The notes beneath the pieces are model-generated. The model was not told where the DNA came from. It saw nothing but the letters and a program-made list of their open reading frames with translations, and did no database searches. Positions 40,672 to 64,000 of a DNA stretch of 64,000 nucleotides are shown here, in pieces (the stretch's first letter is position 1; each line of letters starts with the position of its first letter). Source of the DNA: an uncultured cyanobacterium (lineage in GTDB: Bacteria; Cyanobacteriota; Cyanobacteriia; Cyanobacteriales; CAWUOF01); the NCBI GenBank assembly GCA_963744145.1, contig CAVUSO010000001.1, positions 3,904,001 to 3,968,000 on the forward strand, read 5' to 3'. Made by a program: the position numbers and the translations under genes.

Positions 40672-41839
40672 TCAATCCCTATAGATGACATAATCTTCTG
40701 TGAAACAGTCATCTCCTAGAACTGTTTTAACAGTAAAAGTCTCTCCGGGTTCCCCCTGGAAATTTAGTTGAATCCAATTATCAGCAGTTCTCGATTTAGC
40801 TTCGAGAAAAACCTCTCCTGAGTGATCGAGTACAATCAGTTGCAAATCTGGCGGGAGGTAAGTTGATTCACCAGTCGGATAAATCTGTAAAAGAATATCG
40901 CGCTTTTCATCTGCTTCTAATTCAATATCGTTAATCAAAGCCAGTGGTGCTTCTTGATCGCCTAATTCAACAAGTTTTACTACTCTTATTTTGGCTTTTG
41001 GGCTTTCAGCATCAGCGCCACGACCGCGGGTTGTTGATGCAAATCTGTACCTTAAATTAGGGCTGAAAGCTTGAGCATACTGGGGCGAATTTAAGGTTGA
41101 TTCAATTTCTTGCAAGAAGGATTCAACGGTTTGCCGACCAGCATCTAAGGTCTTTTTTCCGAACTCTAAAACGTCCTGAAATAATTTATTGATATTGACA
41201 AATTGCTGAACATGATTTGCAATCTGAGGGGTGAGGATGACTTTGTTGCCCAGGTTTCGCAGCCGTGGGGAGTTACGCAGGGACTCGGTATCGTAAACAT
41301 CGAGGGCTGCACCAGCAATTTTACCTGTTTCTAAGGCGTCAATTAATGCCGCTTCATCTACCAGTTTTTTGTCTGTACAATTGATTAAGCGAGCAGTGTT
41401 TTTCATCTTGGCAAATGCTTCTGCATTGATGAAGTTTACTCGCTCTGGGGTGAGGGGCAAGTGGAGGGTGATATAGTCGGATTGTGTGAGGAGGGAGTCT
41501 AAACTAACGGCGCGATCGCCTAGTATTTGCTCTTCTTCATCGGGAGAGTAAACTAGCACTTCCATGTCCAAATGCTTGTGCCACATTTGCCACATGGGAA
41601 CCTACTTCGCCAAAACCAATAATACCGAGGGTTTGACCGGAAATTGTCCCACCAGTGAATTTCTCTGGCTGCCATTGACCGTTTAATATGGATTGGTGGG
41701 CTTCTGGGAGTTGGTAGGATAGGGACAATAACAGACCGATGACGTATTCGGCTGTCGATGTGGTTGAGGGGTTGGCTTTTTGCAGGATGGGCTTTGGCAT
41801 AGTTACAGAAGTGGTAGTTTCAATCAAATTCGTAGGCAT
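40672..41839 (-). CDS. Inactive D-2-hydroxyacid dehydrogenase NAD-binding domain fused to a DUF1822-type C-terminal domain; +1 frameshift near 41568
   Basis: Two ORFs join at AF-(G/D)-MEVLVY (1168 bp = 389 codons + 1). GIIGFGEVG is retained. The C-terminus YLPPDLQLIVLD..GEVFLEAKSRTADNWIQLNFQGEPGE matches that of 59574-60935. Confidence 0.8.
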
Positions 41840-41999
41840 TTGTGCCCACACTTAAGCTGTGCGGATTTGCAGGTTTGTCAACGAATTTGTAGCTTTTTCT
41901 AGCTGCTCTTTAAGTTTAGCATAAAATACTTGGATTTTGACGATAGATAGATAATAGTGTTTAGTGTCTTTACCTGTTCTCAGAATTTTTAATCAGGTT

Positions 42000-42962
42000 A
42001 TGCAGAAAAAAGTTTTGGTCATCAGCAAAATCCACCCAGAGGGGATTACCGAGTTAGAAAAGTTTGCCTTAGTAGATGAAAAAATTGGTTTGTCCTTTGA
42101 CAAAATTTCAGAAATTATTGATCAATATGATGCTGTGGTTTTGCGATCGGGGACAGATCATTTAAAGCATGCAACCGTGTTGGAGGCGGGAAAGAGGGGA
42201 AAATTGCGAGTTGTAGGATTGGCGCAGACAGGGACAGATAATGTTGATCTTGAAACTGCCGAACGGTTAGGGATTAGGGTGCTTAATTCTAATGCTAATG
42301 ATATTTCTACGGCTGAATTAGTTTTAGGTCTGATGTTCAATTTAGCTCGACATATTATCGCGGCACAACAAGCACTATTAAATGGAGACTGGGAGGACCG
42401 TAATGGCAGTTTATTGGGAATAGAACTTTCTGGAAAAACACTGGGAATTATTGGGTTAGGCAATATCGGTCAAAAGGTGGCAAAAAGAGCGAAAGGAGGT
42501 ATTGAAATGAAGATTATGGCATATAATCGTAATCGTGAAAATGTGGCGAATTTAGCTAGCGAAAGGGGTTATATTTTATCGAGTTTAGATGAACTGTTGG
42601 AAAAATCTGATATTATTACTTTACACATTCCTTTGACAGAGGAAACGAGGAATTTAATTAATGCAGCAGCTATAGATAGGATGAAACCAACTGCTTTTAT
42701 TATCAATTGTGCTCGCGGTGGAATTGTGAATGAGGCAGATTTGTTGAAGGCGTTGGAGTCTAATCGAATTGCGGGTGCTGCTTTGGATGTTTTTGAGCAG
42801 GAACCTCTGCCAGATAATTCGCCTTTGAGAGAGTTTGCTAGGAGGAGTAATAAATTGTATTTGAGTCCGCATTTGGGTTCGGGTACATACGATGCACAGC
42901 GGAAAGTTGCGATCGATGTGGTCAGGCAGATTTGTAGATATTTATGCGGGGAAGATTTGTAA
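42000..42962 (+). CDS. D-3-phosphoglycerate dehydrogenase-like hydroxyacid dehydrogenase without ACT domain
   Basis: GTDNVD, GIIGLGNIG, and catalytic NCARGG, DVFEQEP, SPHLG; about 320 aa. Confidence 0.88.
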   Translation: MQKKVLVISKIHPEGITELEKFALVDEKIGLSFDKISEIIDQYDAVVLRSGTDHLKHATVLEAGKRGKLRVVGLAQTGTDNVDLETAERLGIRVLNSNANDISTAELVLGLMFNLARHIIAAQQALLNGDWEDRNGSLLGIELSGKTLGIIGLGNIGQKVAKRAKGGIEMKIMAYNRNRENVANLASERGYILSSLDELLEKSDIITLHIPLTEETRNLINAAAIDRMKPTAFIINCARGGIVNEADLLKALESNRIAGAALDVFEQEPLPDNSPLREFARRSNKLYLSPHLGSGTYDAQRKVAIDVVRQICRYLCGEDL

Positions 42963-43179
42963 GTATTTATATGGTCGGGTAAAAATGTGATATTTTATAC
43001 TAAATAGTATCACTTATTCATTTCTATCTTAAACGTCAAGAAAATGGCCCTAAATATTTACTTCTAACTCCACCGATTGCAATATTTCAGCTAATTAAAC
43101 AGGTAAACTTAGAAAAATTTAGCGGATGCACTAATCCTAACCCTTACCTTTGATAGGAGTCAGGGAAAGTCCAATGATT

Positions 43180-45369
43180 TTAGCGTATTCTCACAAAACC
43201 AGCTTTTTCAATTAACTTTTGTCCCTGAGCTGTTAACAATAAATTAGCATAAGCTTCTCCTGCTTGTTGCTGAACCTCACCATTTTGTTTAACAATTACA
43301 AATAAGTTCCGGGTAAGTGGGTATTTACCATTTTCAAATGCCGTCACATTAATTTCATTATGGTGTTGCTCAGAACATTCGGAAGGAGGTATGAACGGTT
43401 CTTTATAAGGAGCAACCGTTTCAACTTTTAAAGATTTAACTCTACATTGGGTCACTATTTCAGAAGCAGAATCATAATATATACCACCATTATCTTCCGC
43501 CACTTTTCTCACAGCTTCAGTAGCACTATTAACAAACTTAATCTGCAAGCCCAGAGTATTCTCGTTTATCTTTGACAGCAAAAACTTTGTCGAACTTGGA
43601 CCAGGAAGAGAGTAAGCGGTAATTTTTTGGTCCTGACCGCCTAATTTTTTCCAGTTGGTAATTTTGCCAGTATAAATATCTTTAATCTGAGCTAAAGTTA
43701 AACCAGTAATATTTAAATTCGGGTTAACTATAAACGCTATTCCCTCAATAGCTATCGGGATTTCTTTGAGGGAAAGTCTCTTTTTTTCAGCAGGTTTTTT
43801 GTCGTCATCATCCACAGGGTAAGAAGACTGAAAAAATGCTAAATCCTTATTATCTAAAAGCATTTGAATCCCATCAGTTGATTCAGGAGGGGGAGTTTTA
43901 GCTGATGGAAAAGGCAACAATCCAAACTGAGGCCATACCTTTTTAATTTCAGTATTTACAACGTAATTAATTCGTACCCAATCGGCACTTCCTGCATAAT
44001 AAAATGTTGCGGAGGGAACATTGCGCACTTTCTGAAAAGTATCAGGCGGCATATGCCACCACCAGTAAGCGAATCCTAACACTGCTAGAATTAATAAAAA
44101 TAAGATTACTGGAATTTTAATTATCTTTCTCCGAAACTTGTTAATACGTCGAAATAGAGTTTTAATCCTCTCACAAATAAGTGTTTGGCGAGGAGGTGGG
44201 TCAGGAACTTCAGGTTCGGGAATTGGGGGTGGATCTCCCCCTGGAGCGATTGGGGGTCCTGGTATTTTTGCTTCAATTCGCCGTAAATTTTCCCAAGTGG
44301 GGGGTATAATAGCAGGATTTTGGTGGATAACAGGCAACCAAGACGCACAGGGAAAATCGTTTTCTATTCTATCATGTAACATTTGTCGCGCTTCTCTAAA
44401 AGCAAGATATAAAGATTCACCATTAGAAAACGAACTTAAAAAAGATTTCAAGAATGTTTTAGCAACTAAATCGGGAACTGGTTCCCGCATGACAATAATC
44501 TGAGGAATCTGTAACCCGGCTAAATATCTCGCAAGTCCCAACCCATCGCAGGAATTGAAAATCGCCAGTTGCAACCCTCGTTCAATCGCCTTTTGTAAAG
44601 CGAACCTTAAACGTGATATTAGCAATCTTTCTGTAGGATTGATATGAATTTCCCCAGTAGTCGCATCCGATTGACTACTACTATGTCCGGCAAAAAATAA
44701 AATATCCCATCCGTTGTTATCCCGAAGTTGATCGATAAATTCATCTGGGGTTGGTTCCACCCGAAAAACCGTTTCAGCATCGGGTAACTTCTCCAAAATC
44801 TGCCTGTCTGCCTCAATGTCAATCGGGATACCAGTTTGAGGGTCAGATCGATCGCCTAAAATAGCCAATATCCTCACCTTCGCTCTGGGTTGCACTTGAT
44901 AATCAATCTGCCCAAATTCAGGCAAAGAAAGAGCTACTTCTGCGTTACCGTAACTGTCAAATAAATTCCACAAACACCAAGGTAGTCGCCGCAATTTGGT
45001 ATCTTCCGTCTGAATAATCACCCTGACCGTTTCATTTATGTTTAAATTTTGCTGAAACGCATTTGTAATTCGGCGAAATGTCCCCGAATCGAGCCAGTCA
45101 TTTAACTCTTTTTTTAAACGATCACTGCTATCTCTTAAATTCTCATCTGAAACGTTTGTGACTTGCTCTGGTGGTGCTGTCAGTCTTCCTCGCACAAATG
45201 TGCGATATTCTGATTGCCATTTTTCATAAAATGAATCAATCAGATGGGGAGATAGTTCACCACTACGGGATATGTGGGAGGAATAGCCCTCTTCCGAAAT
45301 GTACAATGTCACCGGAAACCCTAGTTCAAAGCTACCTTGCCCAATTTTGATAACTACTAACTTTCCCAT
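43180..45369 (-). CDS. CHAT protease - Pro-rich linker - TM - PstS-like periplasmic binding domain
   Basis: FFAGHS and FNSCDG dyad; TM IPVILFLLILAVLGFAYWWW; PBP motifs IKDIYTGKITNW and YPLTRNLFVIV. Confidence 0.87.
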   Translation of the reverse strand: MGKLVVIKIGQGSFELGFPVTLYISEEGYSSHISRSGELSPHLIDSFYEKWQSEYRTFVRGRLTAPPEQVTNVSDENLRDSSDRLKKELNDWLDSGTFRRITNAFQQNLNINETVRVIIQTEDTKLRRLPWCLWNLFDSYGNAEVALSLPEFGQIDYQVQPRAKVRILAILGDRSDPQTGIPIDIEADRQILEKLPDAETVFRVEPTPDEFIDQLRDNNGWDILFFAGHSSSQSDATTGEIHINPTERLLISRLRFALQKAIERGLQLAIFNSCDGLGLARYLAGLQIPQIIVMREPVPDLVAKTFLKSFLSSFSNGESLYLAFREARQMLHDRIENDFPCASWLPVIHQNPAIIPPTWENLRRIEAKIPGPPIAPGGDPPPIPEPEVPDPPPRQTLICERIKTLFRRINKFRRKIIKIPVILFLLILAVLGFAYWWWHMPPDTFQKVRNVPSATFYYAGSADWVRINYVVNTEIKKVWPQFGLLPFPSAKTPPPESTDGIQMLLDNKDLAFFQSSYPVDDDDKKPAEKKRLSLKEIPIAIEGIAFIVNPNLNITGLTLAQIKDIYTGKITNWKKLGGQDQKITAYSLPGPSSTKFLLSKINENTLGLQIKFVNSATEAVRKVAEDNGGIYYDSASEIVTQCRVKSLKVETVAPYKEPFIPPSECSEQHHNEINVTAFENGKYPLTRNLFVIVKQNGEVQQQAGEAYANLLLTAQGQKLIEKAGFVRIR

Positions 45370-45686
45370 AGCTGGTATTTTGTAATCGCTGATACCCAAA
45401 AAAGGGCGGTTAGATAAAATCCGGTGGCATCATAATTATAGCGTGGGGCGATCCGGAAAGCCCGCTATCCCTACAGAATCGCGGCATTTCCAGCCCGCAC
45501 CACAAAATACATAATTCCCATATACTCGGAAATAGTATTATTCCATATTCCGAGAATTTCTCCTAGATTTCTACCATAGAATATAATTATAGTAGAAAGC
45601 TCCAGCGGAAAGAAAAACTTCCCCTGGGCGCTGGGCGCTCGCGGGTAAACCAGATGGTGTACGTTACCAAATAAAGGAGGTTAACG

Positions 45687-47192
45687 GTGACAAAACTTGG
45701 AAATTTGCGATTACCAGTTTTCCGACGAGATGTTTTCATATTTGCTGTATTAGGGTTACTAGCACTGATCCTATTTAGCTGTTCCTCTCAATCCAATTCA
45801 GTAACGCTTTCAGGGGGTTTTCAAGATGGGTTCTACAGTCTTCTGAGCGAACAAGTACGTGATTCTGGGAAAGAAGTCGTTAATATGACAGTCAATATTG
45901 ACAAATCACAGGGATCGCAAGACAATCTGCAACGGTTAAATAATAATCAAGCTGAATTTGCATTAGTCCAGTTGGATGTTGCTAGTAAAGCAATGAAAGA
46001 CAATAAAGTCCAAGCAATGGTAGTTTTAGCAAAAGAATACGTCTATGTAATTGTTCAGAACAATTCAGGTATTAAAACCTTCACAGATTTAGAGGGTAAA
46101 CGAGTTGCAGTAGGTCCTGATAATAGTGGTATTTCTTTTACAGCTAATAATTTATTTGAAGCAGCTCAGTTAAATATTATTCGTGATAAGGCTGAGTTTG
46201 ATGATGCTTTAAAAAAATTGAAGAAAGGACTAGTTGATGCGGTAGTTTATGTTGGTATTTTGGGAAAAAAAATAAAAGATAAATTTGACACAATTCCTGG
46301 ATGGCAGTTATTAGCAATACCACCTAATTTGGTTAACTATCTTGTTACTGTAAATCCTGGTGATTATCAACCTGCTGTTATTCCCGTTGGGAGCTATAAA
46401 AATAATCCAACAATTCCTGCTGAAGATATGTCTACCTTATCGACAGCAACGGTTTTAGTAACTCGATCTCATGATAATACTAATTCTCAAAAAGTAGCTT
46501 TGCTTACTTGGTCAGTTCTATCAACTGCTCGTCAGTATTCTCAATTTTATCCAGAATTAGCAACGGGAGATGCAAAAGTTTTGTTAGAGCGGGGTTTGTT
46601 TTATGTACATCCTAGCACTCAGACGGTTTTTAATCAAGGAGATCCGCGATCTCCTTGGATATACTATTTACAACAGGAAAATCAGCCCTTACAAGGAGGG
46701 GTAATTATATTGACTCTGACGAGTTTAATTGGATATTTAATTCATCGTTGGCAAAAACAACAGTCAGAAAAGCTACTCAAAGCAACTCGCAAAGCTGTTA
46801 GTGAGTGGCGATCGCTAATCCAACAAGATGCAGGACAAGTTTTAACAAATATTGAACAATTGCGTCAGCAACATCGCATGATGCTTCTGGATGGTGCTAT
46901 TACTCCTGAAATTTATGATCGTGCAGGACGGATGACTCAAGCTTTGGCAGATCAGTGTCGAATTTTGCAACAGCAACAACACCAAGAATTGCTTCAAAAA
47001 ATGTTGCTTCTAATTGATGAATGGCAAAACATATTATATTCTCAACCAGAAGCAGCTTTGGAAAAAATTCAGGCAGCTCAAGAAAATTATCGTGAACTGC
47101 TTTTATCTGACCAAATTGATATCCAAACCTATCTTCAGCTCAAGCAAATGATTCTGATTTCTTTGATTAAGTTTAACCTGAGTTCGGGATAA
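45687..47192 (+). CDS. TAXI-family solute-binding protein with TM and cytoplasmic helical tail; 3' end runs into the IS982 relic
   Basis: Lipobox-like LFSC, SQGSQDNL, FALVQLD, DLEGKRVAVG; last codons NLSSG* are IS sequence. Confidence 0.8.
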   Translation: MTKLGNLRLPVFRRDVFIFAVLGLLALILFSCSSQSNSVTLSGGFQDGFYSLLSEQVRDSGKEVVNMTVNIDKSQGSQDNLQRLNNNQAEFALVQLDVASKAMKDNKVQAMVVLAKEYVYVIVQNNSGIKTFTDLEGKRVAVGPDNSGISFTANNLFEAAQLNIIRDKAEFDDALKKLKKGLVDAVVYVGILGKKIKDKFDTIPGWQLLAIPPNLVNYLVTVNPGDYQPAVIPVGSYKNNPTIPAEDMSTLSTATVLVTRSHDNTNSQKVALLTWSVLSTARQYSQFYPELATGDAKVLLERGLFYVHPSTQTVFNQGDPRSPWIYYLQQENQPLQGGVIILTLTSLIGYLIHRWQKQQSEKLLKATRKAVSEWRSLIQQDAGQVLTNIEQLRQQHRMMLLDGAITPEIYDRAGRMTQALADQCRILQQQQHQELLQKMLLLIDEWQNILYSQPEAALEKIQAAQENYRELLLSDQIDIQTYLQLKQMILISLIKFNLSSG

Positions 47193-47868
47193 GGAAGGGA
47201 CAAGCAAGTAAGCTAGAAGTCATCACACCATCGAATGGATGCCCTCCACCAGACAAGCCTTTGAGCATCTATCGGCACAGTTGTTTTGGCAAATGTACAG
47301 GGGTGTCGGTCATGGACTCCACCAAGATTCAGGTGTGTCACAACCGAAGGATTAAAAAGCACAAGGTCTTCAAGGATATCGGACAACGAGGCAAGACTTC
47401 TGTGGATTGGTTTTTCGGGTTTAAGCTCCATCTGGTTTGTAATGAGCTTGGGGAACTGCTGAATATCGCTGTGACTCCGGGGAATACAGATGACCGGAAA
47501 CCTGTGCTGAATCTGCTCCAAGGCTTGTCTGGTAAGGTGATAGCTGACCGAGGCTAAATCTCCCAAAAGTTGTTTGAGCAACTGTTAACCCAGATGGGGA
47601 TTCAACTGATTACCAAGCCGAAACGGAATATGAAAAATAAGCTGATGCCACTGATGGATCAGCTACTGACACGCCAACGCTCAATCATTGAGACAATTAT
47701 TGACCAACTGAAAAACATCTCTCAGATTGAGCATTCCAGGAATCGCATTCCAGTGAACTTTTTGGTGAATTTGGTCGGTGGGCTGATTGCCTATTGCCAT
47801 CAGCCGAAGAAGCCTTCTCTCAATATCAATGCCTTTTTCCTCCCTTCGGCTTAACCCGAACTCAGGTT
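47175..47868 (+). mobile_element. IS982-family relic (694 bp, internally deleted, transposase with a premature stop)
   Basis: IRs aacctgagttcgggataag and cttaacccgaactcaggtt; MDSTKIQVC, WFFGFKLH, DRG then TAA (47555-47557), then RSIIETI...IEHSR. The transposase N-terminal half is absent. Confidence 0.88.
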
Positions 47869-48170: not shown

Positions 48171-48199
48171 TATTTCTCTGATTATCAATAGTTCTCTAA

Positions 48200-48556: not shown

Positions 48557-48575
48557 AAAGTCCTCATTTACTTGA

Positions 48576-48938
48576 TTAAATTTTTGGTAAATAAACGATC
48601 TGATCTTGATACTCATTGTCAAAAGAGGCTTCAGCAATAAAAATTAGTTGATTGATATTTTCACCAATACTAAGTTTAGGACCCAAAATAAAAATTCCTG
48701 GGACATGACCCCCACATTCAATATGTTCAGCCAAGTAAACTGGCATTGATTTACGATTGTTTGTCACTAAGACAAAATTGTGTTCTTCACACCAGCACAA
48801 AATCTCTGGGTCTAAAGTGCTTAAAGGAGGTACATTAGGTTCGCCTATTTTCCAGACAACAAAATTAGGATTGTTTTCGATTAATTGTCTTTTATAAATC
48901 GGGTCTAAATTTTCATCAAGCAAGTATTTTAGACTCAT
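48576..48938 (-). CDS. DUF5615 PIN-like toxin (VapC45-like)
   Basis: LKYLLDEN, DPEILCWC, LVTNNRKSM and H.PGI motifs. Confidence 0.82.
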   Translation of the reverse strand: MSLKYLLDENLDPIYKRQLIENNPNFVVWKIGEPNVPPLSTLDPEILCWCEEHNFVLVTNNRKSMPVYLAEHIECGGHVPGIFILGPKLSIGENINQLIFIAEASFDNEYQDQIVYLPKI

Positions 48939-49266
48939 TGGCTTTCTGTTGAGATTCTAATTCAGCTTTAAGCTTTCTGAGTCGAATAATTCCTGGTGGG
49001 GGATTTAGTTCTTGAGCTTTCCATTGTTGGTGACTCCATTCTAACCAATCAGCTAGATAGGCGCTAACGGCTTCTTTGTTATGTAAATAATAAGTGATAG
49101 TTGCATAAATTTGTTCCAAAGTTAAAGAAGGATAAGATTGGAGAATTTGCTCGGGAGTGCGGGCGCGATGGATAAAATCATAAAGGATGGTTTCAATGCC
49201 AATCCGTGTCCCTTTTACCCGAATGTCATCTGGGCGTAAAAAGTTGAAGTAGTCTTCTAGTTGCAT
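48916..49266 (-). CDS. DUF433 antitoxin (VapB45-like)
   Basis: IRVKGTRIGIE and YPSLTLEQIYATITYY motifs. Confidence 0.85.
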   Translation of the reverse strand: MQLEDYFNFLRPDDIRVKGTRIGIETILYDFIHRARTPEQILQSYPSLTLEQIYATITYYLHNKEAVSAYLADWLEWSHQQWKAQELNPPPGIIRLRKLKAELESQQKANESKILA

Positions 49267-49758: not shown

Positions 49759-49809
49759 GTTTGACCTTCTCTAGTTATCGGTCTACTTCTAACCATTTAA
49801 GAGATGCTA

Positions 49810-55872: not shown

Positions 55873-57329
55873 CAGGGTTAGCGCATCTAATTTTGTCACC
55901 GAGGATACAGAATATTTTCATCAAATATGAAATATAGCCATCGAGATCAGAACATCACAAATCTGGTAGAGAAAATAGTTGACAAAAGAGCATAGAGAGT
56001 GGTAGGTGAAAAACTATACCGTCCAACTCATAATCTCCAGGAATATTCAAATGTCTCAAGGGTTCGATATCAATATAGCTAATGCTAAACAAAACTCCCA
56101 TTCTGCTAGGAAAAACCAAGTAGTAGCTGACTTGATGGAAATACAACAGAGTTTAGTCAAGCATTTTGAAGATGTTGAAGACCCGAGAGTAAACCGAACA
56201 AAAAAACACTTATTGATAGACATTTTAGTGATGGCAATTCTGGCCATAATAGCTGGAGCACAAGGCTGGGAAGACATTGAGAATTATGGGATTAGTAAAC
56301 AAATTTGGCTAGAAGAGTTTTTAGAATTACCCAATGGTATTCCCTCAGATGATACCTTTCGTCGAGTATTTGAAAGTATTAACCCCAACCAATTGGAGCA
56401 ATGTTTTCAAGCTTGGGTAAACACCTTAGTTACTCAAATGGGAGGAGAAGTAATTGCCATAGATGGGAAGACTGTCAGAGGTTCCTATGACCGAAATCAA
56501 GGACAATCAGCATTACATTTGATTAGTGCGTGGGCTAGTGAACAACGATTAGTTTTAGCACAAATGAAAGTCCAAGATAAATCCAATGAAATTACAGCTA
56601 TTCCAGCATTACTAGAGTTACTTGATATCGCTGGCTCAATTATTACTATTGATGCGATGGGGACCCAAACCGAAATTGCTCAAAAGATTATTGATAAAAA
56701 AGCTGATTATATTCTGACACTTAAAGCCAATCATCCAACTTTACATAATCAGGTACAACAATTCTTCCAAACTGCACAGAAAAATAATTTTTCAGGAATT
56801 GATTTCACTCATGACAAACGGATTGAGAAAGGGCATCATCGGGTGGAAATTCGTGAAGTTTGGGTGCTCCCTATTACGGCCATTCCTGACCTTTACCAAC
56901 CCAAATTATGGGCAGGTTTAAAAAGTATTGTCATCATTCATCGTATCCGTCATCTTTGGAACAAAACTACTTGCGAGACTCAATACTATCTTACTTCTTT
57001 AGACAACAATGCTGAATTCATAGGTCGAGCTATTCGTCAACATTGGGAAATCGAAAATTCTGCACACTGGACTTTAGATTGTACTTTTTTTGAAGATAGC
57101 TGTCGCATTCGTTCTTTTCACAGTCCTCGTAACTTTTCTCTGCTCAGACGATTAGCTCTCAACGCTCTTAATCGCGAGTCAACTTACAAACGCAGTTTAC
57201 GCCAGAAAAGTAAACGCGCTGCTATGGATAATAATTATATGCTCCAAATCCTCCTTTCTTGTTTCTCTGAGTCTACATTAGATCCTTCTTAATCCTTGTG
57301 TCAAGCCTAATTGAGATGCTCTTACCCTG
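55873..57329 (+). mobile_element. ISAs1-family insertion sequence, complete
   Basis: Termini CAGGGT... and ...ACCCTG; 10-bp target duplication AATTTCTACC at 55863-55872 and 57330-57339. Confidence 0.93.
56006..57292 (+). CDS. ISAs1-family transposase
   Basis: DPR..KH.L, IAIDGKT.RGS, KSNEITAIP, TIDAMGTQ and HWEIENSAHW motifs. Confidence 0.95.
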   Translation: MKNYTVQLIISRNIQMSQGFDINIANAKQNSHSARKNQVVADLMEIQQSLVKHFEDVEDPRVNRTKKHLLIDILVMAILAIIAGAQGWEDIENYGISKQIWLEEFLELPNGIPSDDTFRRVFESINPNQLEQCFQAWVNTLVTQMGGEVIAIDGKTVRGSYDRNQGQSALHLISAWASEQRLVLAQMKVQDKSNEITAIPALLELLDIAGSIITIDAMGTQTEIAQKIIDKKADYILTLKANHPTLHNQVQQFFQTAQKNNFSGIDFTHDKRIEKGHHRVEIREVWVLPITAIPDLYQPKLWAGLKSIVIIHRIRHLWNKTTCETQYYLTSLDNNAEFIGRAIRQHWEIENSAHWTLDCTFFEDSCRIRSFHSPRNFSLLRRLALNALNRESTYKRSLRQKSKRAAMDNNYMLQILLSCFSESTLDPS

Positions 57330-57365
57330 AATTTCTACCCACTTGAAAATTAGGAATATTCACCG

Positions 57366-57465
57366 ATGCAACTGGAAGACTATTTTGATTTTCAACGACC
57401 CGATGATATTGGTGACTAATAACCGTAAATCTATGCCGGTCCACTTGATAGATCATATTAACGAA
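57366..57465 (+). pseudogene. Collapsed DUF433/DUF5615 operon remnant
   Basis: ATG CAA CTG GAA GAC TAT (MQLEDYFDFQRPDDI, cf. 49266) joined directly to LVTNNRKSMPVHLIDHI (cf. DUF5615). Confidence 0.7.
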
Positions 57466-57605
57466 TTACTGAAATTAGCCCCTCGGATATCTGCGTGGGA
57501 GAAGTTTGCACCTGTGAGGTCTTTACCTTTAAAATTGCGACCTTGGAGATTTTGATCAGAGAAGTCTTGACCTTGGAGATTTTGATCAGAGAAGTCTTGA
57601 GGCAT
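57453..57605 (-). pseudogene. N-terminal fragment of a pentapeptide-repeat protein with a 30-bp tandem duplication
   Basis: MPQDFSDQNLQGQDFSDQNLQGRNFKGKDLTGANFSHADIRGANFSNSLI*; repeat units 57541-57570 and 57571-57600. Confidence 0.7.
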
Positions 57606-57650
57606 ATTTAGTTACCAATTGGTATGTAATATAAGCAGTTCGCACAGTTA

Positions 57651-58016
57651 TTAAGAATCATCTCGATCGCACTCGGCTAAAATGCTAAAAACCTGATTAG
57701 GACTAATATCTTCTCGGTCTGATTTAGAGTAAATAGTGAGGAGAAGTACGCTAATTGGTGATTCAACTTGATAGATAAGTCGATAACCAGCACTTTTCCC
57801 TTTTTGGATATCGCTATTTTTAACTCTCACCTTAAAGATGACATAATTTTCACCCATCCCGGCAAGGCGATCGCCTATAAAGTTCCCACCTTGTAATTGC
57901 TCAATAATTGACTGAGTATCTAACCGGATATTGCGATATTTTTTGGATAATTCCCGTAAATTCCGTTTATACTCAGGTGTTAAATCAATCTGGACAAAAG
58001 GCGTGTCATTCGATAT
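57651..58016 (-). CDS. RelE/ParE (HigB-like) toxin; the expected start codon reads ATA
   Basis: The frame extends upstream of the tracked ORF (SNDTPFVQIDLTPEYKRNLRELSKKYR...) to ATA at 58016, preceded by TAG; KVRVKNSD..KGKSAGYRLIY motif. Confidence 0.75.
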   Translation of the reverse strand: MSNDTPFVQIDLTPEYKRNLRELSKKYRNIRLDTQSIIEQLQGGNFIGDRLAGMGENYVIFKVRVKNSDIQKGKSAGYRLIYQVESPISVLLLTIYSKSDREDISPNQVFSILAECDRDDS

Positions 58017-58260
58017 CTATTCCCTCCCACATTTCCGCAAGAGGGATGCGTTGTCCTGATTTAGCTTGCTTTAATGCTCGTCGGAGACTCGCTTTTACTT
58101 CTTCAATGGGAGTATCATCAGGATCGGTTTCAACTTCCTCAGTTACTTCGGGAAAAAGTACGATCACTCGCACTCGACTAGAGGGGAATTTTTCAATGGG
58201 ATAGTCGAGGGACAATTGACCTTTTTCATCCAGGGTTCCTGTGACTTCAACGGCTTTCAT
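58006..58260 (-). CDS. Putative antitoxin of the RelE pair
   Basis: MKAVEVTGTLDEKGQL...SLRRALKQAKSGQRIPLAEMWEG; overlaps the toxin start. Confidence 0.75.
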   Translation of the reverse strand: MKAVEVTGTLDEKGQLSLDYPIEKFPSSRVRVIVLFPEVTEEVETDPDDTPIEEVKASLRRALKQAKSGQRIPLAEMWEGIDIE

Positions 58261-58280
58261 CTAGTTGTCCTCAAATTTGC

Positions 58281-58349
58281 ATCTATTATTATATTACATT
58301 CAAAGTTATTGAAATCTATTATTATATTACATTCAAAGTTATTGAAATC
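58281..58349. repeat. 33-bp tandem duplication in the TA promoter region
   Basis: atctattattatattacattcaaagttattgaa at 58281 and 58314. Confidence 0.85.
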
Positions 58350-59550
58350 ATTTCCTAAGTTGAGAGCCGCAGGCTTCACAAAACATAACACCTGCCACAT
58401 TTTCATGGCTGCAACTACTACAAATTATCATTCTTGAAGAAGATGGCGCAACCGCCGATTTTAGTCCACACAACTCCCGCCAACTCACCGGCTCCTCAGC
58501 AGGATTCTGACAAATAACCGGCAACCAAGTCGCACAAGGAAATTCACGCTGCACGCTTTCCAATCTTTCTCGCGCTTCCCGCACCGCCAAATACAAAGAT
58601 TCACCGCGAGCAAACGCCTCAAGAAAATACTTCAAAAACTCTTGAGCCACCATATCCGGCACCGGCTCTCGCATCACAATAACTTGCGGCATATTCAAAT
58701 CAGCTAACTGCTTGGCAATTCCCAACCCATCACAAGAGTTAAAAATTGCCAACTTTAACCCTCTCGCTATTGCCCTTCTCAGAGTTAACTTTAAATCCCC
58801 AATTTCTAAACTTTTACCATTTTTAATAAAAAGCTTTCCCATAGTAGCATCAGGTTCACTAATACTGTGACCAGCAAAAAACAAAATATCCCATCCCTGC
58901 GAATCCCAAATCACCTCAAAAACCTTTTCTTTTTCCGGTTCCCTAACAAAAACAATTTCTGCCTCTGGTAACTTTTCTTCTAATTCACGCTGATCCCTCT
59001 CTGAATTAATTCCCGTACTGTCACCAATAATCGCCAAAATCCTCACCTTTTTTCTATTTTTCAGTGAGTTTGATTGCTGACAGACAGGAGAACTCAAAGC
59101 TACTTCTGCATTTAGGTAATGATTAAAAAACTCCCACAAATGCCAAGGTAAGCGCCGCAAGTGGGAGTCTTCAGTTTGAACGATTACGCGCACTTCTTCA
59201 TTTTGCCTAACGTTCATTAGTAAACCCTGCATGACAGGGAAAAAATCAGGTGATTTAAGCCAATCATTAAGCTGCTGTTTTAAAGCATCACTGTCTACTT
59301 CTAAATCGCGACTAGAAAAATTTTGTACCCCTGATATCTTTTCCAATTCTCGAAACCTCGACCCCATTAGACGATATCTGGATTGCCAAGTAGTATATAG
59401 CTGTGGAATGTGCGGTGCAGGTGGCAATTTGCCAATAAATGCTCCTAACAAATACTGATTATCTTCCTTAATTTCCAGCCTGACTTGCTGAAAACCCTGC
59501 TGGCAATTACCAGTGATGAAACTCAATACAGCTATCTTACCCATTGGCAT
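58348..59550 (-). CDS. CHAT protease with a C-terminal zinc ribbon
   Basis: FFAGHS and FNSCDG dyad; CSSC...FCEACG. Confidence 0.87.
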   Translation of the reverse strand: MPMGKIAVLSFITGNCQQGFQQVRLEIKEDNQYLLGAFIGKLPPAPHIPQLYTTWQSRYRLMGSRFRELEKISGVQNFSSRDLEVDSDALKQQLNDWLKSPDFFPVMQGLLMNVRQNEEVRVIVQTEDSHLRRLPWHLWEFFNHYLNAEVALSSPVCQQSNSLKNRKKVRILAIIGDSTGINSERDQRELEEKLPEAEIVFVREPEKEKVFEVIWDSQGWDILFFAGHSISEPDATMGKLFIKNGKSLEIGDLKLTLRRAIARGLKLAIFNSCDGLGIAKQLADLNMPQVIVMREPVPDMVAQEFLKYFLEAFARGESLYLAVREARERLESVQREFPCATWLPVICQNPAEEPVSWRELCGLKSAVAPSSSRMIICSSCSHENVAGVMFCEACGSQLRK

Positions 59551-59573
59551 TCCCTATAAATTTTGAGTTGAAA

Positions 59574-60935
59574 TTAGATCGCAAAATCCTCAGTAATATT
59601 GACATCCTCCAACACTACTTTAACACTAAAATGTTCTCCCGCTTCCCCTCTAAACTCCAATTGAATCCAATTATCCGCACTTCGAGATTGCGATTCTAAA
59701 AACACTTCTCCAGATTCACCAAGGATAATCAATTGCGCTCCCTGTGGTAAATAAGTTTGTTCTTCCTTACTCGGATACAATCTGACAAGTATATCCCGTC
59801 TTCCATCACTTTCTAGCTGACAATTGATAATTAGCGCAACAGGATGATCTGGCAAGGCGATTTCTCTCACCCTACTCACACTTAAATTAGGTGTTTCAGT
59901 GTCAGCACTGCGGGAACGGGGGGCGCCGGCAAATCTAAAAATTAGATTCCCTTCTTGATTACTTAAAAATGATTCAAGAGGCTGCCAATTGTATTGAGAA
60001 CCTTCAAGATTTTGCAACCATTCACTTAGATTGATTACCCCGGCTGTAGATTGGGATATCGGAGCGATCGCAGGTTGTTTAAGTTGCGGTATTGGTGAAC
60101 TACTTTCATTAGTTAAAGACTCGGAATCAACCGATTTATCTGCGTCATCATCTCCCCATATCTCATCTAACTTTTCTAGCAATTCTTCAGCTAAATTTTG
60201 GAGTTCAGTTTGTTGTAAATCATCAAACTCTTCTCGATTCATAACAGTTGTGCCACCTCGGAAAGCAACATCTTTTACTTTTGGCAAATAACTAGCTAAA
60301 AACTCCCCGCCAGCATAGCGTCGCTCGTATTTGTTATAGGTGCGATAGATGCGTTCTAGTTGAGCAGCAATCTCTAAAATTGATTGGTCTGCTAATCTTT
60401 CCCTAACCTTAATTGCTACCTCTTCATCGCTTTGTAAAAAATCATGTGCTGATTCCAAGCGATCGATATAATCAATCAATGTTTCTATCGGTTGAAGACT
60501 GGCAATTTCTATTTCGTCCGGCGGTGCTTGTGGGTCTATTGTTGGATGAAATCCTAACAGTTGCACCTCATTCAAATGTTCTTGGAATTGTACCCCAATA
60601 TAGGCAATTCTATCCTCAGTTACCTTTGGAGGTAGAGAAATAACTGTTTGTCCAGATAAAACCGGACGACATTCGAGTTTACCTAAATTGGGAATTACTA
60701 AATCCGCTACGTCTTGGAAACATCGGACAACAGAATGCCAACTGTCCCCTGCGTTTAAATTAGTTTCAATTCCTAGCCAGTCTAAAAAACTGCGAACGCC
60801 TAAAATAGCCAGAGTGTTTAAGTAAACTTGCTTACCTTTTTCAACTGTATCTTGTTGCACAGAGAATTTCCGCGCAGTTTCATGGTTTTCTCTGCTTAAA
60901 GGCATCGTCAAAAAGTTGGTTTTTGTGGTATCCAT
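59574..60935 (-). CDS. DUF1822 family protein
   Basis: KGKQVYLNTLA, ADLVIPNLGKLECRPV and DRIAYIGV N-terminal motifs; INLSEWL and YLPQGAQL...DNWIQLEFRGEAGE C-terminal motifs. Confidence 0.87.
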   Translation of the reverse strand: MDTTKTNFLTMPLSRENHETARKFSVQQDTVEKGKQVYLNTLAILGVRSFLDWLGIETNLNAGDSWHSVVRCFQDVADLVIPNLGKLECRPVLSGQTVISLPPKVTEDRIAYIGVQFQEHLNEVQLLGFHPTIDPQAPPDEIEIASLQPIETLIDYIDRLESAHDFLQSDEEVAIKVRERLADQSILEIAAQLERIYRTYNKYERRYAGGEFLASYLPKVKDVAFRGGTTVMNREEFDDLQQTELQNLAEELLEKLDEIWGDDDADKSVDSESLTNESSSPIPQLKQPAIAPISQSTAGVINLSEWLQNLEGSQYNWQPLESFLSNQEGNLIFRFAGAPRSRSADTETPNLSVSRVREIALPDHPVALIINCQLESDGRRDILVRLYPSKEEQTYLPQGAQLIILGESGEVFLESQSRSADNWIQLEFRGEAGEHFSVKVVLEDVNITEDFAI

Positions 60936-60947
60936 AAGATTCTCCTT

Positions 60948-61661
60948 TTATTTCTCGTATCCTAATTCTCTAGCAATTGTTCTAAGTAAAGGAAGACAGT
61001 AGTTTCGCCAGCGATCGTACAATGTTTGTTCGGAAATAACTGTTTCGGCAGTGGTTAACTCTCTGGCAATTTGTCTGGGGTTAAGAGGAGGTTCTTTAAG
61101 CAGTATTTTTTGACTTAAAATTTGGCAATTAAGATGGGAATTATTACGCGGGTGACAATTTCTCAATCTAATTTCTGGATCTTCTTCAATATAGCGCCTC
61201 ATTGTCCTAGCAAGTAAATGAAGTTCTTCTATCAAAAGACACTCAATGCCAGTGATAGTTAAATCATCTGCTATCGTTTCTTCGATTGTTAAGCCGTCTT
61301 CTCCTCTATTTATACTAACAGTTCTAGGTTGCCTGTCTCGCCGACGTTTCACATCTTTGCAATCGCACTTAAGAATCATATTTACCCACTTAATAAAGCA
61401 TTCCCGGACATTAGCAGCCTCAGAAGAGTTTTGACAGTTAACGCTTTCCAAGTTCAAAGAATACCTTTGAGGAAACTCATTAATATTTTGCTGAATGTCC
61501 CTCATTGTCACTGGGAGCGCTTCATCATAATAGGGTAGCCAACCGTTACCGAGATAATTCTTGATTTTTGGCAAATGATCGATCGCGTATGCTAGTACCT
61601 CTGCCTTGTTAGGATCATGCAAGGCTTCTTGAATTAATTTACATAACGACGCATCATTCAT
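60948..61661 (-). CDS. Divergent sigma-70-like factor
   Basis: FIKWVNMIL region-2-like segment, YIEEDPE..LRNCH, IARELT HTH, WRNYCLPLLR; upstream of DUF1822, the usual arrangement for this family. Confidence 0.65.
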   Translation of the reverse strand: MNDASLCKLIQEALHDPNKAEVLAYAIDHLPKIKNYLGNGWLPYYDEALPVTMRDIQQNINEFPQRYSLNLESVNCQNSSEAANVRECFIKWVNMILKCDCKDVKRRRDRQPRTVSINRGEDGLTIEETIADDLTITGIECLLIEELHLLARTMRRYIEEDPEIRLRNCHPRNNSHLNCQILSQKILLKEPPLNPRQIARELTTAETVISEQTLYDRWRNYCLPLLRTIARELGYEK

Positions 61662-62056
61662 AGGAGCGTGAATCAAAGCAAAAAAGAGGGATACTCTGGA
61701 TTTTATACCCAAAAGCACCATCCACCTCATCCATCCCCTATTCTCTTAAGCTGCATCGCCCAAGTTCCAGAATCCTCGGGAGCATTCCAGTTTGGAACTA
61801 AGCAGAAATACTCAAGCAGGATGAATTGTTAAGATAAGCACAACGAAGTCGGAGCATCCGAGGGACATTTTGCCGTTTCCACATGGTACCACTAATCTTG
61901 ACCCTGGCAATGGCCTGGGAAATATCCCGATTTTTGATCACCTCCACTGTTTTCCTCCGGACTACCATTTTTTGGGTGCGATCGCTACTCGCTTTGATGA
62001 TATGATGACGGAATGGTAATCAACACTACCTGGTTAAGCATTTTCGTGGCTATGAT

Positions 62057-62123
62057 ATGTCAGCTAAAGATATCTTTCATTTTTGATGCTATTCAAGAGG
62101 AAATACTTTTATGGAAAGAGTAG
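62057..62123 (+). pseudogene. XisH-family remnant (only the two ends remain)
   Basis: MSAKDIFH start joined to FDAIQEEILLWKE*, overlapping the XisI start. Confidence 0.7.
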
Positions 62124-62440
62124 AATACAGAGAATTAGTCCAAACAATTCTGTCTCAACACTCAAGAAATGACTTGGATACTGAGACAGAAGTACAATTA
62201 CTTTTTGATACGGAAAGGGAGCATTATCAAGTAGTTCATTTAGGCTGGGAGGGTCAAAAAAGGGTTTATGGTTGCGTGATTCACGTCGATATAAAAAATG
62301 GTAAAATCTGGATTCAGAGGGATAGAACGGAAGCAGGAATAGGGAATGAATTAGTAGCCGCCGGAGTTCCTAAAGAGGATATTGTTTTAGCTTTTAAAGC
62401 TCCTTATGTGCGTCAATTCACTGAATTTGCAGTGGGGTAA
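62111..62440 (+). CDS. XisI family protein
   Basis: FDTEREHYQ, IHVDIKNGKIWIQRD.TE.G and LVAAGVPKEDIVLAF motifs. Confidence 0.9.
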   Translation: MERVEYRELVQTILSQHSRNDLDTETEVQLLFDTEREHYQVVHLGWEGQKRVYGCVIHVDIKNGKIWIQRDRTEAGIGNELVAAGVPKEDIVLAFKAPYVRQFTEFAVG

Positions 62441-62703
62441 ATAGTCATTGTTGGGCAACAAGCGAGGGAATTGAGGTAGGTAAAGATGCGGTCAAGTTCC
62501 CCTATGGCATTGAGTTCTGCCTCTTCTTCTAGGGTCAGCAAACCTGTCTTGTTTTTTTCTAGCAGGTCTTCAAGGTTAGATTGTAACTCGTCGGTAAATT
62601 TGAAGAGTCGAAGGCTATCAACCTTCTCAACTTTAATGCCTGTTTCTAGTAAAGAGTGTGGGCTAATCACTACTTGAATCATAATTTTGCTGCTCCAGTA
62701 CAA
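62413..62703 (-). CDS. Small antitoxin-like hypothetical protein (3' end probably degenerate)
   Basis: FKFTDELQSNLEDLLEKNK.G.LT.EEEAEL..I.ELDRIFT. Confidence 0.55.
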   Translation of the reverse strand: MYWSSKIMIQVVISPHSLLETGIKVEKVDSLRLFKFTDELQSNLEDLLEKNKTGLLTLEEEAELNAIGELDRIFTYLNSLACCPTMTIYPTANSVN

Positions 62704-62766
62704 AGGACTAACTTAACTTAATTTACGTCTATTTAATGAGTTTGCAGGAGATACAAGCAACACACT

Positions 62767-63129
62767 TTATGGCAAAGGTAAATAAACTATTCGGTCTTGA
62801 TATTCATACTCCTCAGAGGTCAGGGCAACTAAAATCAATTCTTCAAGGTTTTCGCCAATACTTAAATTAGGATTGAGGATAAAAATCCCTGGTATATGAT
62901 GATCTAGCGCGATATGATCTGCCAAGTGAACTGGCATTGAAGTACGGTTATTAGTCACAAGCACAAATTGATGATCTTCGCACCAATAGAGAATGTCTGG
63001 ATCGAGTGTTCCTTTTGGTGGTGTTTCCGGTTCTCCTACTACTTGGATTACGATACCAGGTTCTCGCTGTCTAATTTGATTGGGATACAGAGGATTTACA
63101 TTTTCATCAATTAGGTATTTTAGAGTCAT
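62767..63129 (-). CDS. DUF5615 PIN-like toxin (second copy)
   Basis: LKYLIDEN and LVTNNRTSMPVHL; paralogue of 48576-48938. Confidence 0.82.
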   Translation of the reverse strand: MTLKYLIDENVNPLYPNQIRQREPGIVIQVVGEPETPPKGTLDPDILYWCEDHQFVLVTNNRTSMPVHLADHIALDHHIPGIFILNPNLSIGENLEELILVALTSEEYEYQDRIVYLPLP

Positions 63130-63133
63130 CGGC

Positions 63134-63466
63134 TTATGTTTTGGCTTGTCTATCTGCTCTCAATTGACGAAGTTTTTCCGATACTGGTGGAGGGTTGAGT
63201 CGCTGTTGTTCTCTCATTTTGTGACCGTGTTCTATCCAATTTTTTATGTAATTGTTGATGGTTTCTTTGTTCTGTAGGTAATATAGAATTGTCGCATAGA
63301 CTTGTTCTAAGGTTAGCGAGGGGTAGGTTTGGGCAATTTCCTCTGGAGTGCGACTGCGATCGATGTATTCATAAAGGATGGTTTCGATGCCGATTCTTGT
63401 GCCTTTCAGTCGAATATCATCAGGGGTGAGAAAGTTGAAATAATCTGTTAGTTGTGCTGTTGACAT
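63134..63466 (-). CDS. DUF433 antitoxin (second copy)
   Basis: IRLKGTRIGIETILY and YPSLTLEQVYA; paralogue of 48916-49266. Confidence 0.85.
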   Translation of the reverse strand: MSTAQLTDYFNFLTPDDIRLKGTRIGIETILYEYIDRSRTPEEIAQTYPSLTLEQVYATILYYLQNKETINNYIKNWIEHGHKMREQQRLNPPPVSEKLRQLRADRQAKT

Positions 63467-63581
63467 GGTTAAGCCTCATTCAATAATAGTCATTGTTGGG
63501 CAACAAGCGAGGGAATTTACGTAGGTATTGATAGCGATCGCTTTCTACACCAATAGGTTAGAAAGCGATCACACTTGGTTT

Positions 63582-64000
63582 CTAGCTACTGCATAGTTGA
63601 TTCCAATTCGGGGGCGATTCTGCCAGATTTTGATAGATCATTGGCAACCAGCTAGCGCGGGAAAATTGATACTCAAAACCAGTCAACCTTTCTCGTGCTT
63701 CCCTGACTGACAAATATAAGGGTTTGCCAGTCGCAAAAGCTTGAAGAAAATACTTCAAGAATTCTTGAGCTACACGATCAGGTATTAGCTCTTGCATGAA
63801 AATGATTTGGGGGATCTGCAAAGAGGCTAACTCTTGCGCTAAACCCAAGCCGTCACAAGAGTTGAAAATTCCTAATTGTAGCCCTTGTGAAATTGCCTTC
63901 CGCAGCGGATGCTTTAAGTCGCCTATGGTAACGCTATCGGTTTCGTTGATATAAAACCGTCCTTTTTCTCCCTCAGTGCAGCTATGCCCACCAAGATAGA
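63582..64000 (-). CDS. CHAT protease, C-terminal part (5' end outside the window)
   Basis: Frame open from the window edge: YLGGHSCTEG...GLQLGIFNSCDGLGLA...SWLPMIYQN. Confidence 0.85.
   Translation of the reverse strand, partial: YLGGHSCTEGEKGRFYINETDSVTIGDLKHPLRKAISQGLQLGIFNSCDGLGLAQELASLQIPQIIFMQELIPDRVAQEFLKYFLQAFATGKPLYLSVREARERLTGFEYQFSRASWLPMIYQNLAESPPNWNQLCSS

Follow-up and report, generated by a model that had tools for sequence, protein, structure and literature searches.

Craspase, SAVED-CHAT and the activation of gasdermins are cases in which proteases with the caspase-like CHAT domain drive immunity in bacteria. The present analysis concerns a window of 64,000 nucleotides (nt) of an uncultured cyanobacterium (Cyanobacteriales; CAWUOF01; assembly GCA_963744145.1, contig CAVUSO010000001.1), in which an island encodes five CHAT proteases, two proteins with the C-terminal region of DUF1822 (DUF1822-C) and a candidate sigma factor. 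The closest described systems were predicted in silico by Kaur, Iyer, Burroughs and Aravind in 2021 (PMC8195603) and combine an EACC2 plus caspase protein of variable C-terminus with a sigma factor of the extracytoplasmic function (ECF) type and DUF1822; the supplement of that study has proteins named DUF1822 as “TRADD-N+TPRs” beside EACC2+CASPASE. Kaur et al. 2020 (PMC7159879) describe caspase-like domains on the N-terminus of iSTAND proteins and as effectors. The CHAT protease Csx29 cleaves the sigma-factor inhibitor Csx30 (PMC10028731), DdvA of Myxococcus xanthus is a transmembrane TPR-CHAT anti-sigma protein that goes with the ECF sigma factor DdvS (PMC11506125), and in a type III-B CRISPR/CBASS hybrid a putative sigma factor is cleaved by PCaspase, a second caspase that SAVED-CHAT activates (10.1101/2023.06.23.546230). 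The parts of the island are of kinds already described in silico (PMC7159879, PMC8195603). Searches of the full-text literature found no experimental study of a cyanobacterial EACC2-CHAT/sigma/DUF1822 system, and PF08852 was not found.

On balance, the region is best read as a variable chromosomal island of a filamentous cyanobacterium, with several regulated-proteolysis systems built on one protease module. Pfam and NCBIfam scans of the open reading frames (ORFs) find the CHAT domain in five minus-strand ORFs between positions 43180 and 64000 (Table 1). In a five-way alignment the catalytic His (of GH) and Cys and the FNSCDG and WLP motifs are invariant in all five modules, which bears out the original prediction, made by a model from the letters of the window, that the five CHATs form one minus-strand subfamily with intact dyads. 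The WDIL..GH pattern that it gave for the four fully visible modules is present in each, the fuller WDILFFAGHS in three of them and WDILLFDGHN in the remaining one. The modules are 38-66% identical to that of P0001, and about 110 residues before CHAT are conserved in all four complete modules, as judged from the alignment and not from an EACC2 profile. Because of these shared motifs, the identity and the common N-terminal region, the five CHATs are one subfamily and not a chance grouping. The N-terminal region is called EACC2-like through an indirect link, by way of CHASE2-bearing relatives that are labelled EACC2+CASPASE+CHASE2 in the supplement of PMC8195603. The partners of CHAT differ from protein to protein, and are, as had been predicted, a transmembrane helix with a PstS-like domain in P0001, a vWA-linked helical domain in P0002, iSTAND in P0003 and a Zn-ribbon in P0004, with the N-terminus of P0005 unseen. 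P0005 ends directly after its CHAT module and is the most divergent of the five, its visible part being 51-56% identical to the remaining modules. A set of five such modules within 23 kb is unusual, not unique.

One of these modules was copied between two genes not long ago. Positions 44266-45399 (P0001, residues 1-378) and 49894-51066 (P0002, residues 213-603) are 85% identical at the nucleotide level over 1126 aligned nt, and the sequences that flank them are unrelated (21-23% ungapped identity). The homology begins ten codons before the Met of the module, so the P0001 module derives from a P0002-like gene; protease modules have thus been swapped between sensor scaffolds in recent evolutionary time. 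P0001, whose likely start is the ATG at 45369, has a hydrophobic stretch in its translation and is predicted to be a membrane protein with CHAT in the cytoplasm and the PstS-like domain in the periplasm. Another 119 clusters were listed for P0001, and 100 of them pair CHAT with PBP_like_2, at identities of just 34-47%, and the protease half of P0001 is 57-68% identical to CHATs with other partners (NACHT, VMAP-C, kinase). The EACC2-like part of P0002 contains an in-frame tandem duplication of 42 nt (50773-50856; 14 residues, SGRLTAAxEQVKxV twice), which is missing in the P0001 copy.

Relatives of the module were collected by a genome scan with the CHAT-module alignment, one genome per species, in which at least 609 stretches matched and 596 were confirmed; the 10 kb on either side of the best 80 of the 596 loci were then analysed with local profile hidden Markov models. 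All related loci are cyanobacterial, mostly from filamentous species. A DUF1822-C gene lies directly upstream of the CHAT ORF, on the same strand, for 69 of 94 CHAT ORFs (66 in an earlier single-sequence phmmer pass), in 64 of the 80 loci, and somewhere within the flanks in 73; a P0006-like gene is present in 27. CHASE2 is the C-terminal partner in 65 of the 79 regions scanned; in the remaining 14 the partner is WD40, nSTAND1 (alone or together with WD40), COP23 with Trypsin_2, FHA, PsbP_2, Peripla_BP_6, AAA_35 or nothing recognisable. Pentapeptide repeats make up seven of the nine N-terminal extensions. In ten Nostoc-type loci (L023, L028, L040, L045, L051, L052, L057, L058, L064 and L071) a canonical TPR-CHAT protein of about 900 residues is encoded directly upstream of DUF1822, so that two different CHAT proteases share one operon; a sigma-like gene stands further upstream of TPR-CHAT in L023, L028, L045, L051 and L057.

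Operon A of the island (58348-61730) has the arrangement of sigma-like, DUF1822 and CHAT genes known from PMC8195603: P0006, P0007 and P0004 follow one another with intergenic gaps of 12 and 23 nt. The first gene likely encodes a divergent ECF-like sigma factor. P0006 itself has no Pfam or NCBIfam match; a profile of 20 homologues weakly matches RpoE/SigE (E=0.016), SigK (0.56) and SigH (1) in the PDB, and TIGR02937 (sigma70-ECF) is matched by four of the 20 family members, the best at 9.2e-5, iterative and weak-profile matches of this type being ones that could mislead. A Pfam match to Sigma70_r2 or Sigma70_r4 is present, in another 11 loci, in the ORF upstream of DUF1822. The AlphaFold2 model of P0006 has a predicted local distance difference test (pLDDT) score of 78, and its top Foldseek matches in the PDB are ECF sigma factors (6dv9_F, E 0.032, prob 0.95), under the names SigL, sigma-32, sigma-E and AlgU, none of them at E≤1e-3. 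A transcriptional output, as the original prediction had it, is plausible, since DUF1822 is preceded by a gene for a divergent ECF-like sigma factor. A shared ECF-type promoter did not emerge: GTAAC-N-CGTAA, suggested by eye in a few of 21 regions upstream of sigma-like genes, has no match in the window, and a sigma-70/terminator scan gave no informative excess over shuffles. A perfect 33-nt tandem repeat (58281-58346) directly follows the stop of the CHAT-Zn-ribbon gene. Two DUF1822-tagged proteins with different N-termini had been predicted, which holds for 40672-41595 and not for 59574-60935: P0007 is a complete DUF1822 protein, and its seeming “different N-terminus” is the separate upstream gene 60948-61730.

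In the AlphaFold2 model of P0007 (pLDDT 80) an alpha/beta N-domain (residues 9-145) and helices (150-260) are followed by a disordered acidic stretch, two short helices with the near-invariant residues W306 and W317, a low-confidence Arg-rich linker at 327-351, FRFAGAPRSRSAD, and a confident beta-sandwich at 352-452. The model has no PDB fold match at E≤1e-3 by Foldseek, the best being generic or ApaG-type sandwiches. Of the confirmation by HMMER and Foldseek that had been envisaged for the island, Pfam provided the part on the CHAT domains, and the folds of P0006 and DUF1822 both stayed without a Foldseek match at that threshold. The DUF1822-C profile alone finds 2198 representative clusters. 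The best 150 of these divide into 111 with the canonical N-domain, 26 that are short or incomplete (three with two tandem C-modules and no N-domain) and 13 with another N-terminus of more than 110 residues. Two of the 13 belong to the family of P0008, a fusion with a SerA-type NAD domain that is treated below; the other 11 comprise five with TRADD-like_N (two of them with GerE), three with HTH_3, one with NACHT/NB-ARC, one with PIN_3 and one without a clear domain. In Floridaenema flaviceps (NZ_JBHFNR010000015.1) a single ORF, L005:8469-9872, joins a sigma-like region (residues 85-317, profile 1.7e-27) to DUF1822-C (residues 323-467, 1e-33), and the gene directly downstream of it is a tandem double-CHAT gene.

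From these architectures, the DUF1822-C module, which consists of the two Trp helices, the disordered linker and the beta-sandwich, is portable between cargos. The original prediction was right that DUF1822-C sits on different N-termini, and the cargos now include DUF1822-N, the SerA-like NAD domain, sigma-like, HTH_3, GerE with TRADD-N, PIN and NACHT. The pairing of DUF1822 with EACC2-caspases is already known; the portable C-module and these cargos, among them the SerA-NAD and sigma fusions, were not found stated in the main text of PMC8195603. A homology of DUF1822-N to TRADD-N is unsupported (hhalign probability 0.14%).

Operon B (49810-55743) consists of four translationally coupled genes in the order CHAT-iSTAND, MoxR, vWA and N-domain-CHAT, with overlaps of 4-16 nt; the MoxR gene overlaps the gene upstream of it by 16 nt and the P0002 gene overlaps the vWA gene by 4 nt. 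The presence of iSTAND, MoxR and vWA and the homology to an operon of a Nostoc carneum plasmid identify it as an iSTAND ternary system. P0003 is the sensor (“third”) component of this MoxR-vWA system, and P0002 stands at the effector position, its vWA-linked N-domain being the effector carrier. The plasmid operon (AP018183.1) encodes EAD8-trypsin, EAD8-iSTAND, MoxR, vWA and vWA-L-REC. By tblastn 97% of the island vWA protein aligns, at 41.5% identity, with the vWA of this EAD8-iSTAND system of N. carneum plasmid3, and residues 4-197 of P0002 share 49% identity with the first 200 or so residues of the REC protein encoded after vWA. The name “vWA-L” for the N-domain of P0002 is borrowed from PMC8195603 and not from a profile score, and a protein-cluster search with this domain found unnamed cyanobacterial clusters only. 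P0003 has GEENSGQQ, without Lys, at the P-loop position, and its CHAT+iSTAND architecture is found in 22 other protein clusters. Operon B is self-contained and of a kind already described; the same protease module stands on both its sensor and its effector.

Within the variable island, sensor-gated proteases may well cleave DUF1822-C proteins and release a sigma factor, a proposal that is inferred from architecture, linkage, fusions and analogy and given slightly more credence than doubt. The partner domain would gate each protease, a periplasmic ligand acting on PstS and a MoxR/vWA-controlled assembly on iSTAND. The active protease would dock on the DUF1822-C beta-sandwich, probably via the constant EACC2 domain, and then cut the disordered Arg-rich linker before the sandwich, which would free the N-terminal cargo or what the cargo holds. 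In operon A the N-terminal part of DUF1822 would hold the sigma factor and cleavage would lead to a transcriptional response, parallel to Csx29/Csx30/CASP-sigma. In operon B the effector CHAT could be switched on by the sensor CHAT, either through proximity or through cleavage, in the manner of a small caspase cascade.

Several points weigh against this proposal. The matches behind the sigma assignment of P0006 are weak, both for the profile and for Foldseek, and four of the five CHAT genes of the window have no DUF1822 gene directly upstream. MoxR, vWA or iSTAND lie beside the module in none of the 80 loci, so systems A and B need not interact. The second DUF1822-C gene, with the NAD domain, is frameshifted in this genome and has lost both near-invariant Trp residues. 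P0002 could be decaying: the ratio of nonsynonymous to synonymous substitutions (dN/dS) is about 1.2, and 13 of its conserved sites show derived changes. PMC8195603 proposes activation of the systems as autopeptidases, not cleavage of DUF1822. Finally, a defence role is argued by analogy only, because PADLOC has no model for these proteins: PADLOC-DB v2 gave no family for any of the five CHAT proteins, for either DUF1822 protein or for P0006, and weak AAA matches for MoxR alone.

The strongest rival explanation, possible but held to be rather improbable, is that the island gathers independent paralogous systems in a recombination-prone region, each protease acting in its own operon or by autoprocessing, with no cross-talk. 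A single CHAT ORF is present in 69 of the 80 loci, two in nine, three in one (L002) and four in one (L005), the last two being on one Floridaenema contig; a separate TPR-CHAT stands beside the four CHAT-module ORFs in the 21-kb locus L005. CHAT+iSTAND and CHAT+PstS are moreover widespread on their own, insertion sequence (IS) elements, toxin-antitoxin (TA)-like pairs and conflict-type genes fill the island, and operons A and B are internally coupled with an ISAs1 element between them. The protease module, however, is common to genes of different systems and was exchanged between them not long ago, and Floridaenema too has several CHATs together with several DUF1822-C proteins. CHAT-iSTAND also shares contigs with other CHAT proteins in three other assemblies, the partners being CHAT-NACHT proteins (P0130/P0310, P0131/P0306 and P0137/P0307; locus tags 00085 and 00115 in “Phorm 6”), which hints that multi-CHAT iSTAND islands recur. 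Clustering in other genomes, on which the original prediction had staked its reading, is thus found in at least one genome (L002 and L005), although one CHAT per locus is usual; of the combinatorial network of five proteases that it had pictured, the modular parts are real and the network is unproven.

A second rival concerns DUF1822 itself, which could be a cofactor, an inhibitor or a securin-like scaffold, or an anti-sigma factor that is released uncut, the protease cleaving itself or other targets. The autopeptidase activation predicted in PMC8195603 points this way, as does the weak likeness of the beta-sandwich to ApaG/POLDIP2-type adaptors (6z9c, E 1.3e-3; 5hdw, E 2.6e-3). No conserved single cleavage column was found in DUF1822, whose F-x-F-R / F-R-F motif shifts between subgroups. 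The sigma-like, PIN and HTH fusions are, on the other hand, easier to explain by release or activation of a cargo, and the model places a disordered linker just before the beta-sandwich; a role other than substrate is therefore considered doubtful.

Equally doubtful is the more far-reaching idea that EACC2-CHAT and DUF1822-C form, in filamentous cyanobacteria, a general modular code of protease and tag, in which DUF1822-C keeps a cargo latent, a cut in the linker releases it, and the proteases of the island converge on the two tagged proteins. If this were true, the cargos would be the sigma factor, XRE/LuxR regulators, a TRADD-N adaptor, a PIN nuclease, a STAND NTPase and the dead SerA NAD-domain, the last of which could poison serine synthesis through inactive heterodimers. 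Inputs from a PstS-type ligand, the MoxR/vWA/iSTAND assembly and the Zn-ribbon would then lead to few outputs, with transcriptional and metabolic arms.

The metabolic output that the original prediction had suggested finds a poor candidate in the DUF1822-C gene at 40672-41851. P0008 (40672-41595) has the last two-thirds of a 2-Hacid_dh NAD domain, behind which comes the C-terminal third of DUF1822; the 5' part of the gene, with the start of the NAD domain, lies in another frame at 41537-41851. The frameshift is due to a single additional base near 41566, between “gga” and “atg”, and three codons are missing compared with the orthologues. A protein search found two intact orthologues, whose architecture Pfam confirms: P0009 (383 residues, 91% identity) in Kamptonema sp. 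UHCC 0994 and P0010 (370 residues, 59% identity) in strain BLCC-F50, so the SerA-NAD::DUF1822-C fusion is known from three genomes, the window included. Members of this family have the NAD-binding domain only, with GxGxxG kept; the catalytic Arg is replaced in all three and the His in two. As the substrate-binding domain is absent and the catalytic Arg and His are lost, 40672-41851 is not a D-2-hydroxyacid or phosphoglycerate dehydrogenase. The gene is, as far as its residues tell, a conserved and catalytically dead fusion of pseudo-enzyme and DUF1822-C. The possibility that 40672-41595 is a local junk chimera of the neighbouring dehydrogenase was rejected, since intact orthologues exist and the NAD domain is nearer to cyanobacterial SerA (about 50% identity) than to that intact dehydrogenase (43%). 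A 36-nt tandem repeat (86%, 40607-40678) is found at the stop of the fusion gene.

These features, with the loss of both Trp residues, also raise the question of decay, that is, of an island in which the NAD::DUF1822-C gene and perhaps P0002 are pseudogenes or nearly so, and the richness of the region is evolutionary debris. For the P0001 and P0002 copies dN/dS is about 1.19 (simple Nei-Gojobori, 372 codons), and at positions where P0003 and P0004 agree with the other copy there are 13 derived changes in P0002 and four in P0001; those of P0002 include FFAGHS to LFDGHN, some beside the catalytic His. IS fragments and a DUF5615 remnant are further signs of erosion. The substitution pattern fits either relaxed constraint or diversifying selection, and a dN/dS near 1 would be in keeping with the latter in conflict systems. 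The five CHATs, however, have open frames and intact dyads. Apart from the shift, the two parts of the frameshifted gene are open as well and match the intact orthologue at 91%, so the frameshift is either a recent mutation or a sequencing error. Decay of part of the island is held to be unlikely. No better placed is a role in development or cell-cell signalling of the filament (HetF-like, or nutrient sensing via PstS) instead of defence or cell death: the family is abundant in cyanobacteria, mostly filamentous ones, and is confined to them, and CHASE2 and PstS-like sensors suggest small-molecule inputs with a sigma factor as output, but P0003 scores 17.4 bits against the cut-off of 1200 of the HetF NCBIfam equivalog, iSTAND/MoxR/vWA, NACHT, nSTAND and TRADD-N are typical of conflict systems (PMC7159879, PMC8195603), and other defence-like genes flank the island.

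The left half of the window is ordinary chromosome, with hemE, petCA, glyA and nirA-nrtP-narB; conflict-type genes, a Band7 protein among them, begin at about 30.6 kb, and the CHAT island comes next. On the plus strand at 45687-47192, divergent from the CHAT-PstS gene, lies a gene for a TRAP solute-binding protein of the TAXI type, extended at its C-terminus by some 190 residues; no relative was seen in the 80 loci. TA cassettes and IS lie between the modules, as originally noted and as Pfam and NCBIfam agree. The two DUF433/DUF5615 pairs are 71-78% identical at the nucleotide level, and the second is bracketed by 48-nt direct repeats (62440-62487 and 63485-63532, 92%), as if it were an inserted cassette. 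A remnant of a third DUF5615 gene lies beside ISAs1 (57412-57458, a 47-nt inverted match of 85% to 62912-62958), and next to this remnant are a RelE-like short ORF (57651-57857) and a RelN antitoxin (58006-58260). In a megablast search of 40000-64000 against plasmids an IS fragment was the only match.

Table 1. Coordinates of the genes and elements of the CHAT island and its left neighbourhood (positions in the 64,000-nt window; numbers after family names are E-values)
Feature	Position	Strand	Evidence and remarks
P0001, EACC2-like + CHAT + Pro-rich linker + transmembrane helix + PstS-like domain	43180-45399	-	CHAT 1.5e-11; PBP_like_2 6.3e-23; PstS family 6.1e-29
P0002, helical N-domain (~210 residues, vWA-L-like) + EACC2-like + CHAT	49810-51702	-	CHAT 6.3e-9
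vWA (CoxE-like) protein	51699-52931	-	VWA_CoxE 1.3e-9
MoxR-type AAA+ ATPase	52928-53866	-	AAA_5 6e-13; weak bpMoxR; MadB-family ATPase 2.1e-29, below curated cut-off
P0003, EACC2-like + CHAT + iSTAND	53851-55743	-	iSTAND 8.6e-28; CHAT 2.9e-12
P0004, EACC2-like + CHAT + C-terminal Zn-ribbon	58348-59550	-	CHAT 4.5e-17; Zn_Ribbon_1 6.6e-5
P0007, complete DUF1822 protein	59574-60935	-	Pfam DUF1822 7.5e-69, profile positions 1-369 of 370
P0006, probable divergent ECF-like sigma factor	60948-61730	-	260-residue ORF; likely start at the Met of MNDASL near 61661
P0005, fifth CHAT module	63582-64000	-	CHAT 6.9e-7; C-terminal 138 residues visible, N-terminus beyond the window
NAD::DUF1822-C gene, split (P0008 + P0128)	40672-41851	-	2-Hacid_dh_C; DUF1822 profile positions 221-368
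D-2-hydroxyacid dehydrogenase, intact	41964-42962	+	2-Hacid_dh_C 2e-62 and catalytic domain; Arg and His kept; divergent from the fusion gene
IS fragments, frameshifted DDE_Tnp_1_3 transposase in two adjoining ORFs	47261-47854	+	Best DNA match annotated IS982 family, Nostoc plasmid
DUF433/DUF5615 TA-like pair	48576-49266	-	Pfam; downstream of P0002
ISAs1-family transposase	56006-57292	+	NCBIfam transpos_ISAs1 3e-125; between systems A and B
Second DUF433/DUF5615 pair	62767-63466	-	Pfam; downstream of P0005
Ser/Thr kinase + WD40, candidate defence gene	30653-32533	-	PADLOC PD-T4-6 2.9e-120; left edge of the variable region
GerE/LuxR HTH + NB-ARC STAND NTPase + TPR, conflict-type regulator	37003-39375	-	Immediately upstream of the island

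The cyanobacterial EACC2-CHAT family is very large: with each species represented by one genome, at least 596 stretches are confirmed, and DUF1822-C has 2198 representative clusters. Together, the island and the fusions name a concrete candidate for the substrate or docking module (DUF1822-C) and for the output (a divergent ECF-like sigma factor), by which a computational prediction becomes approachable by a simple co-expression and cleavage experiment.

Among known systems, the island is most like the EACC2-caspase/sigma/DUF1822 systems of PMC8195603, with which it shares a constant N-domain plus CHAT, a variable C-terminus, sigma-like and DUF1822 genes directly upstream and the occurrence in filamentous cyanobacteria; the commonest relative of its module is the CHASE2 form named there. 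It differs in the partners, which are Zn-ribbon, PstS, iSTAND and vWA-L and not CHASE2. DUF1822 is a TPR protein in that study, whereas the model of P0007, an alpha/beta N-domain with a beta-sandwich, does not look like TPR. Operon B resembles the iSTAND ternary systems of PMC7159879, in which iSTAND, MoxR and vWA form one operon, a peptidase stands at the iSTAND N-terminus and the effector is on a separate gene after vWA, with a helical linker domain. In the island, unlike in those systems, sensor and effector carry the same EACC2-CHAT and not an EAD pair such as the EAD8-trypsin/EAD8-iSTAND of the N. carneum plasmid.

With the type III-E Craspase (PMC10028731, PMC9825189) the island would share a gated CHAT, a sigma inhibitor as substrate and a transcriptional output. 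It has neither Cas7-11 and crRNA nor TPR (Pfam found no TPR or Cas domain in the island proteins, and no cas gene is among the window ORFs scanned), and DUF1822 matches no solved structure at E≤1e-3; the resemblance would be one of working principle, not of membership. In DdvA/DdvS (PMC11506125), as is proposed for the island, a CHAT is tied to the freeing of an ECF sigma factor, and DdvS controls a defence island; the CHAT of DdvA is periplasmic and fused to the anti-sigma factor, whereas the CHAT of the island is cytoplasmic and DUF1822, the putative anti-sigma factor, is a separate protein. SAVED-CHAT and PCaspase (10.1101/2023.06.23.546230) are, like the proteases of operon B, two caspase-like proteases in one system, the first of which is activated there by oligomerisation of the sensor. 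The sensor is a cyclic-nucleotide SAVED domain in that case and an iSTAND domain under MoxR/vWA control in the island, where the cascade is a proposal.

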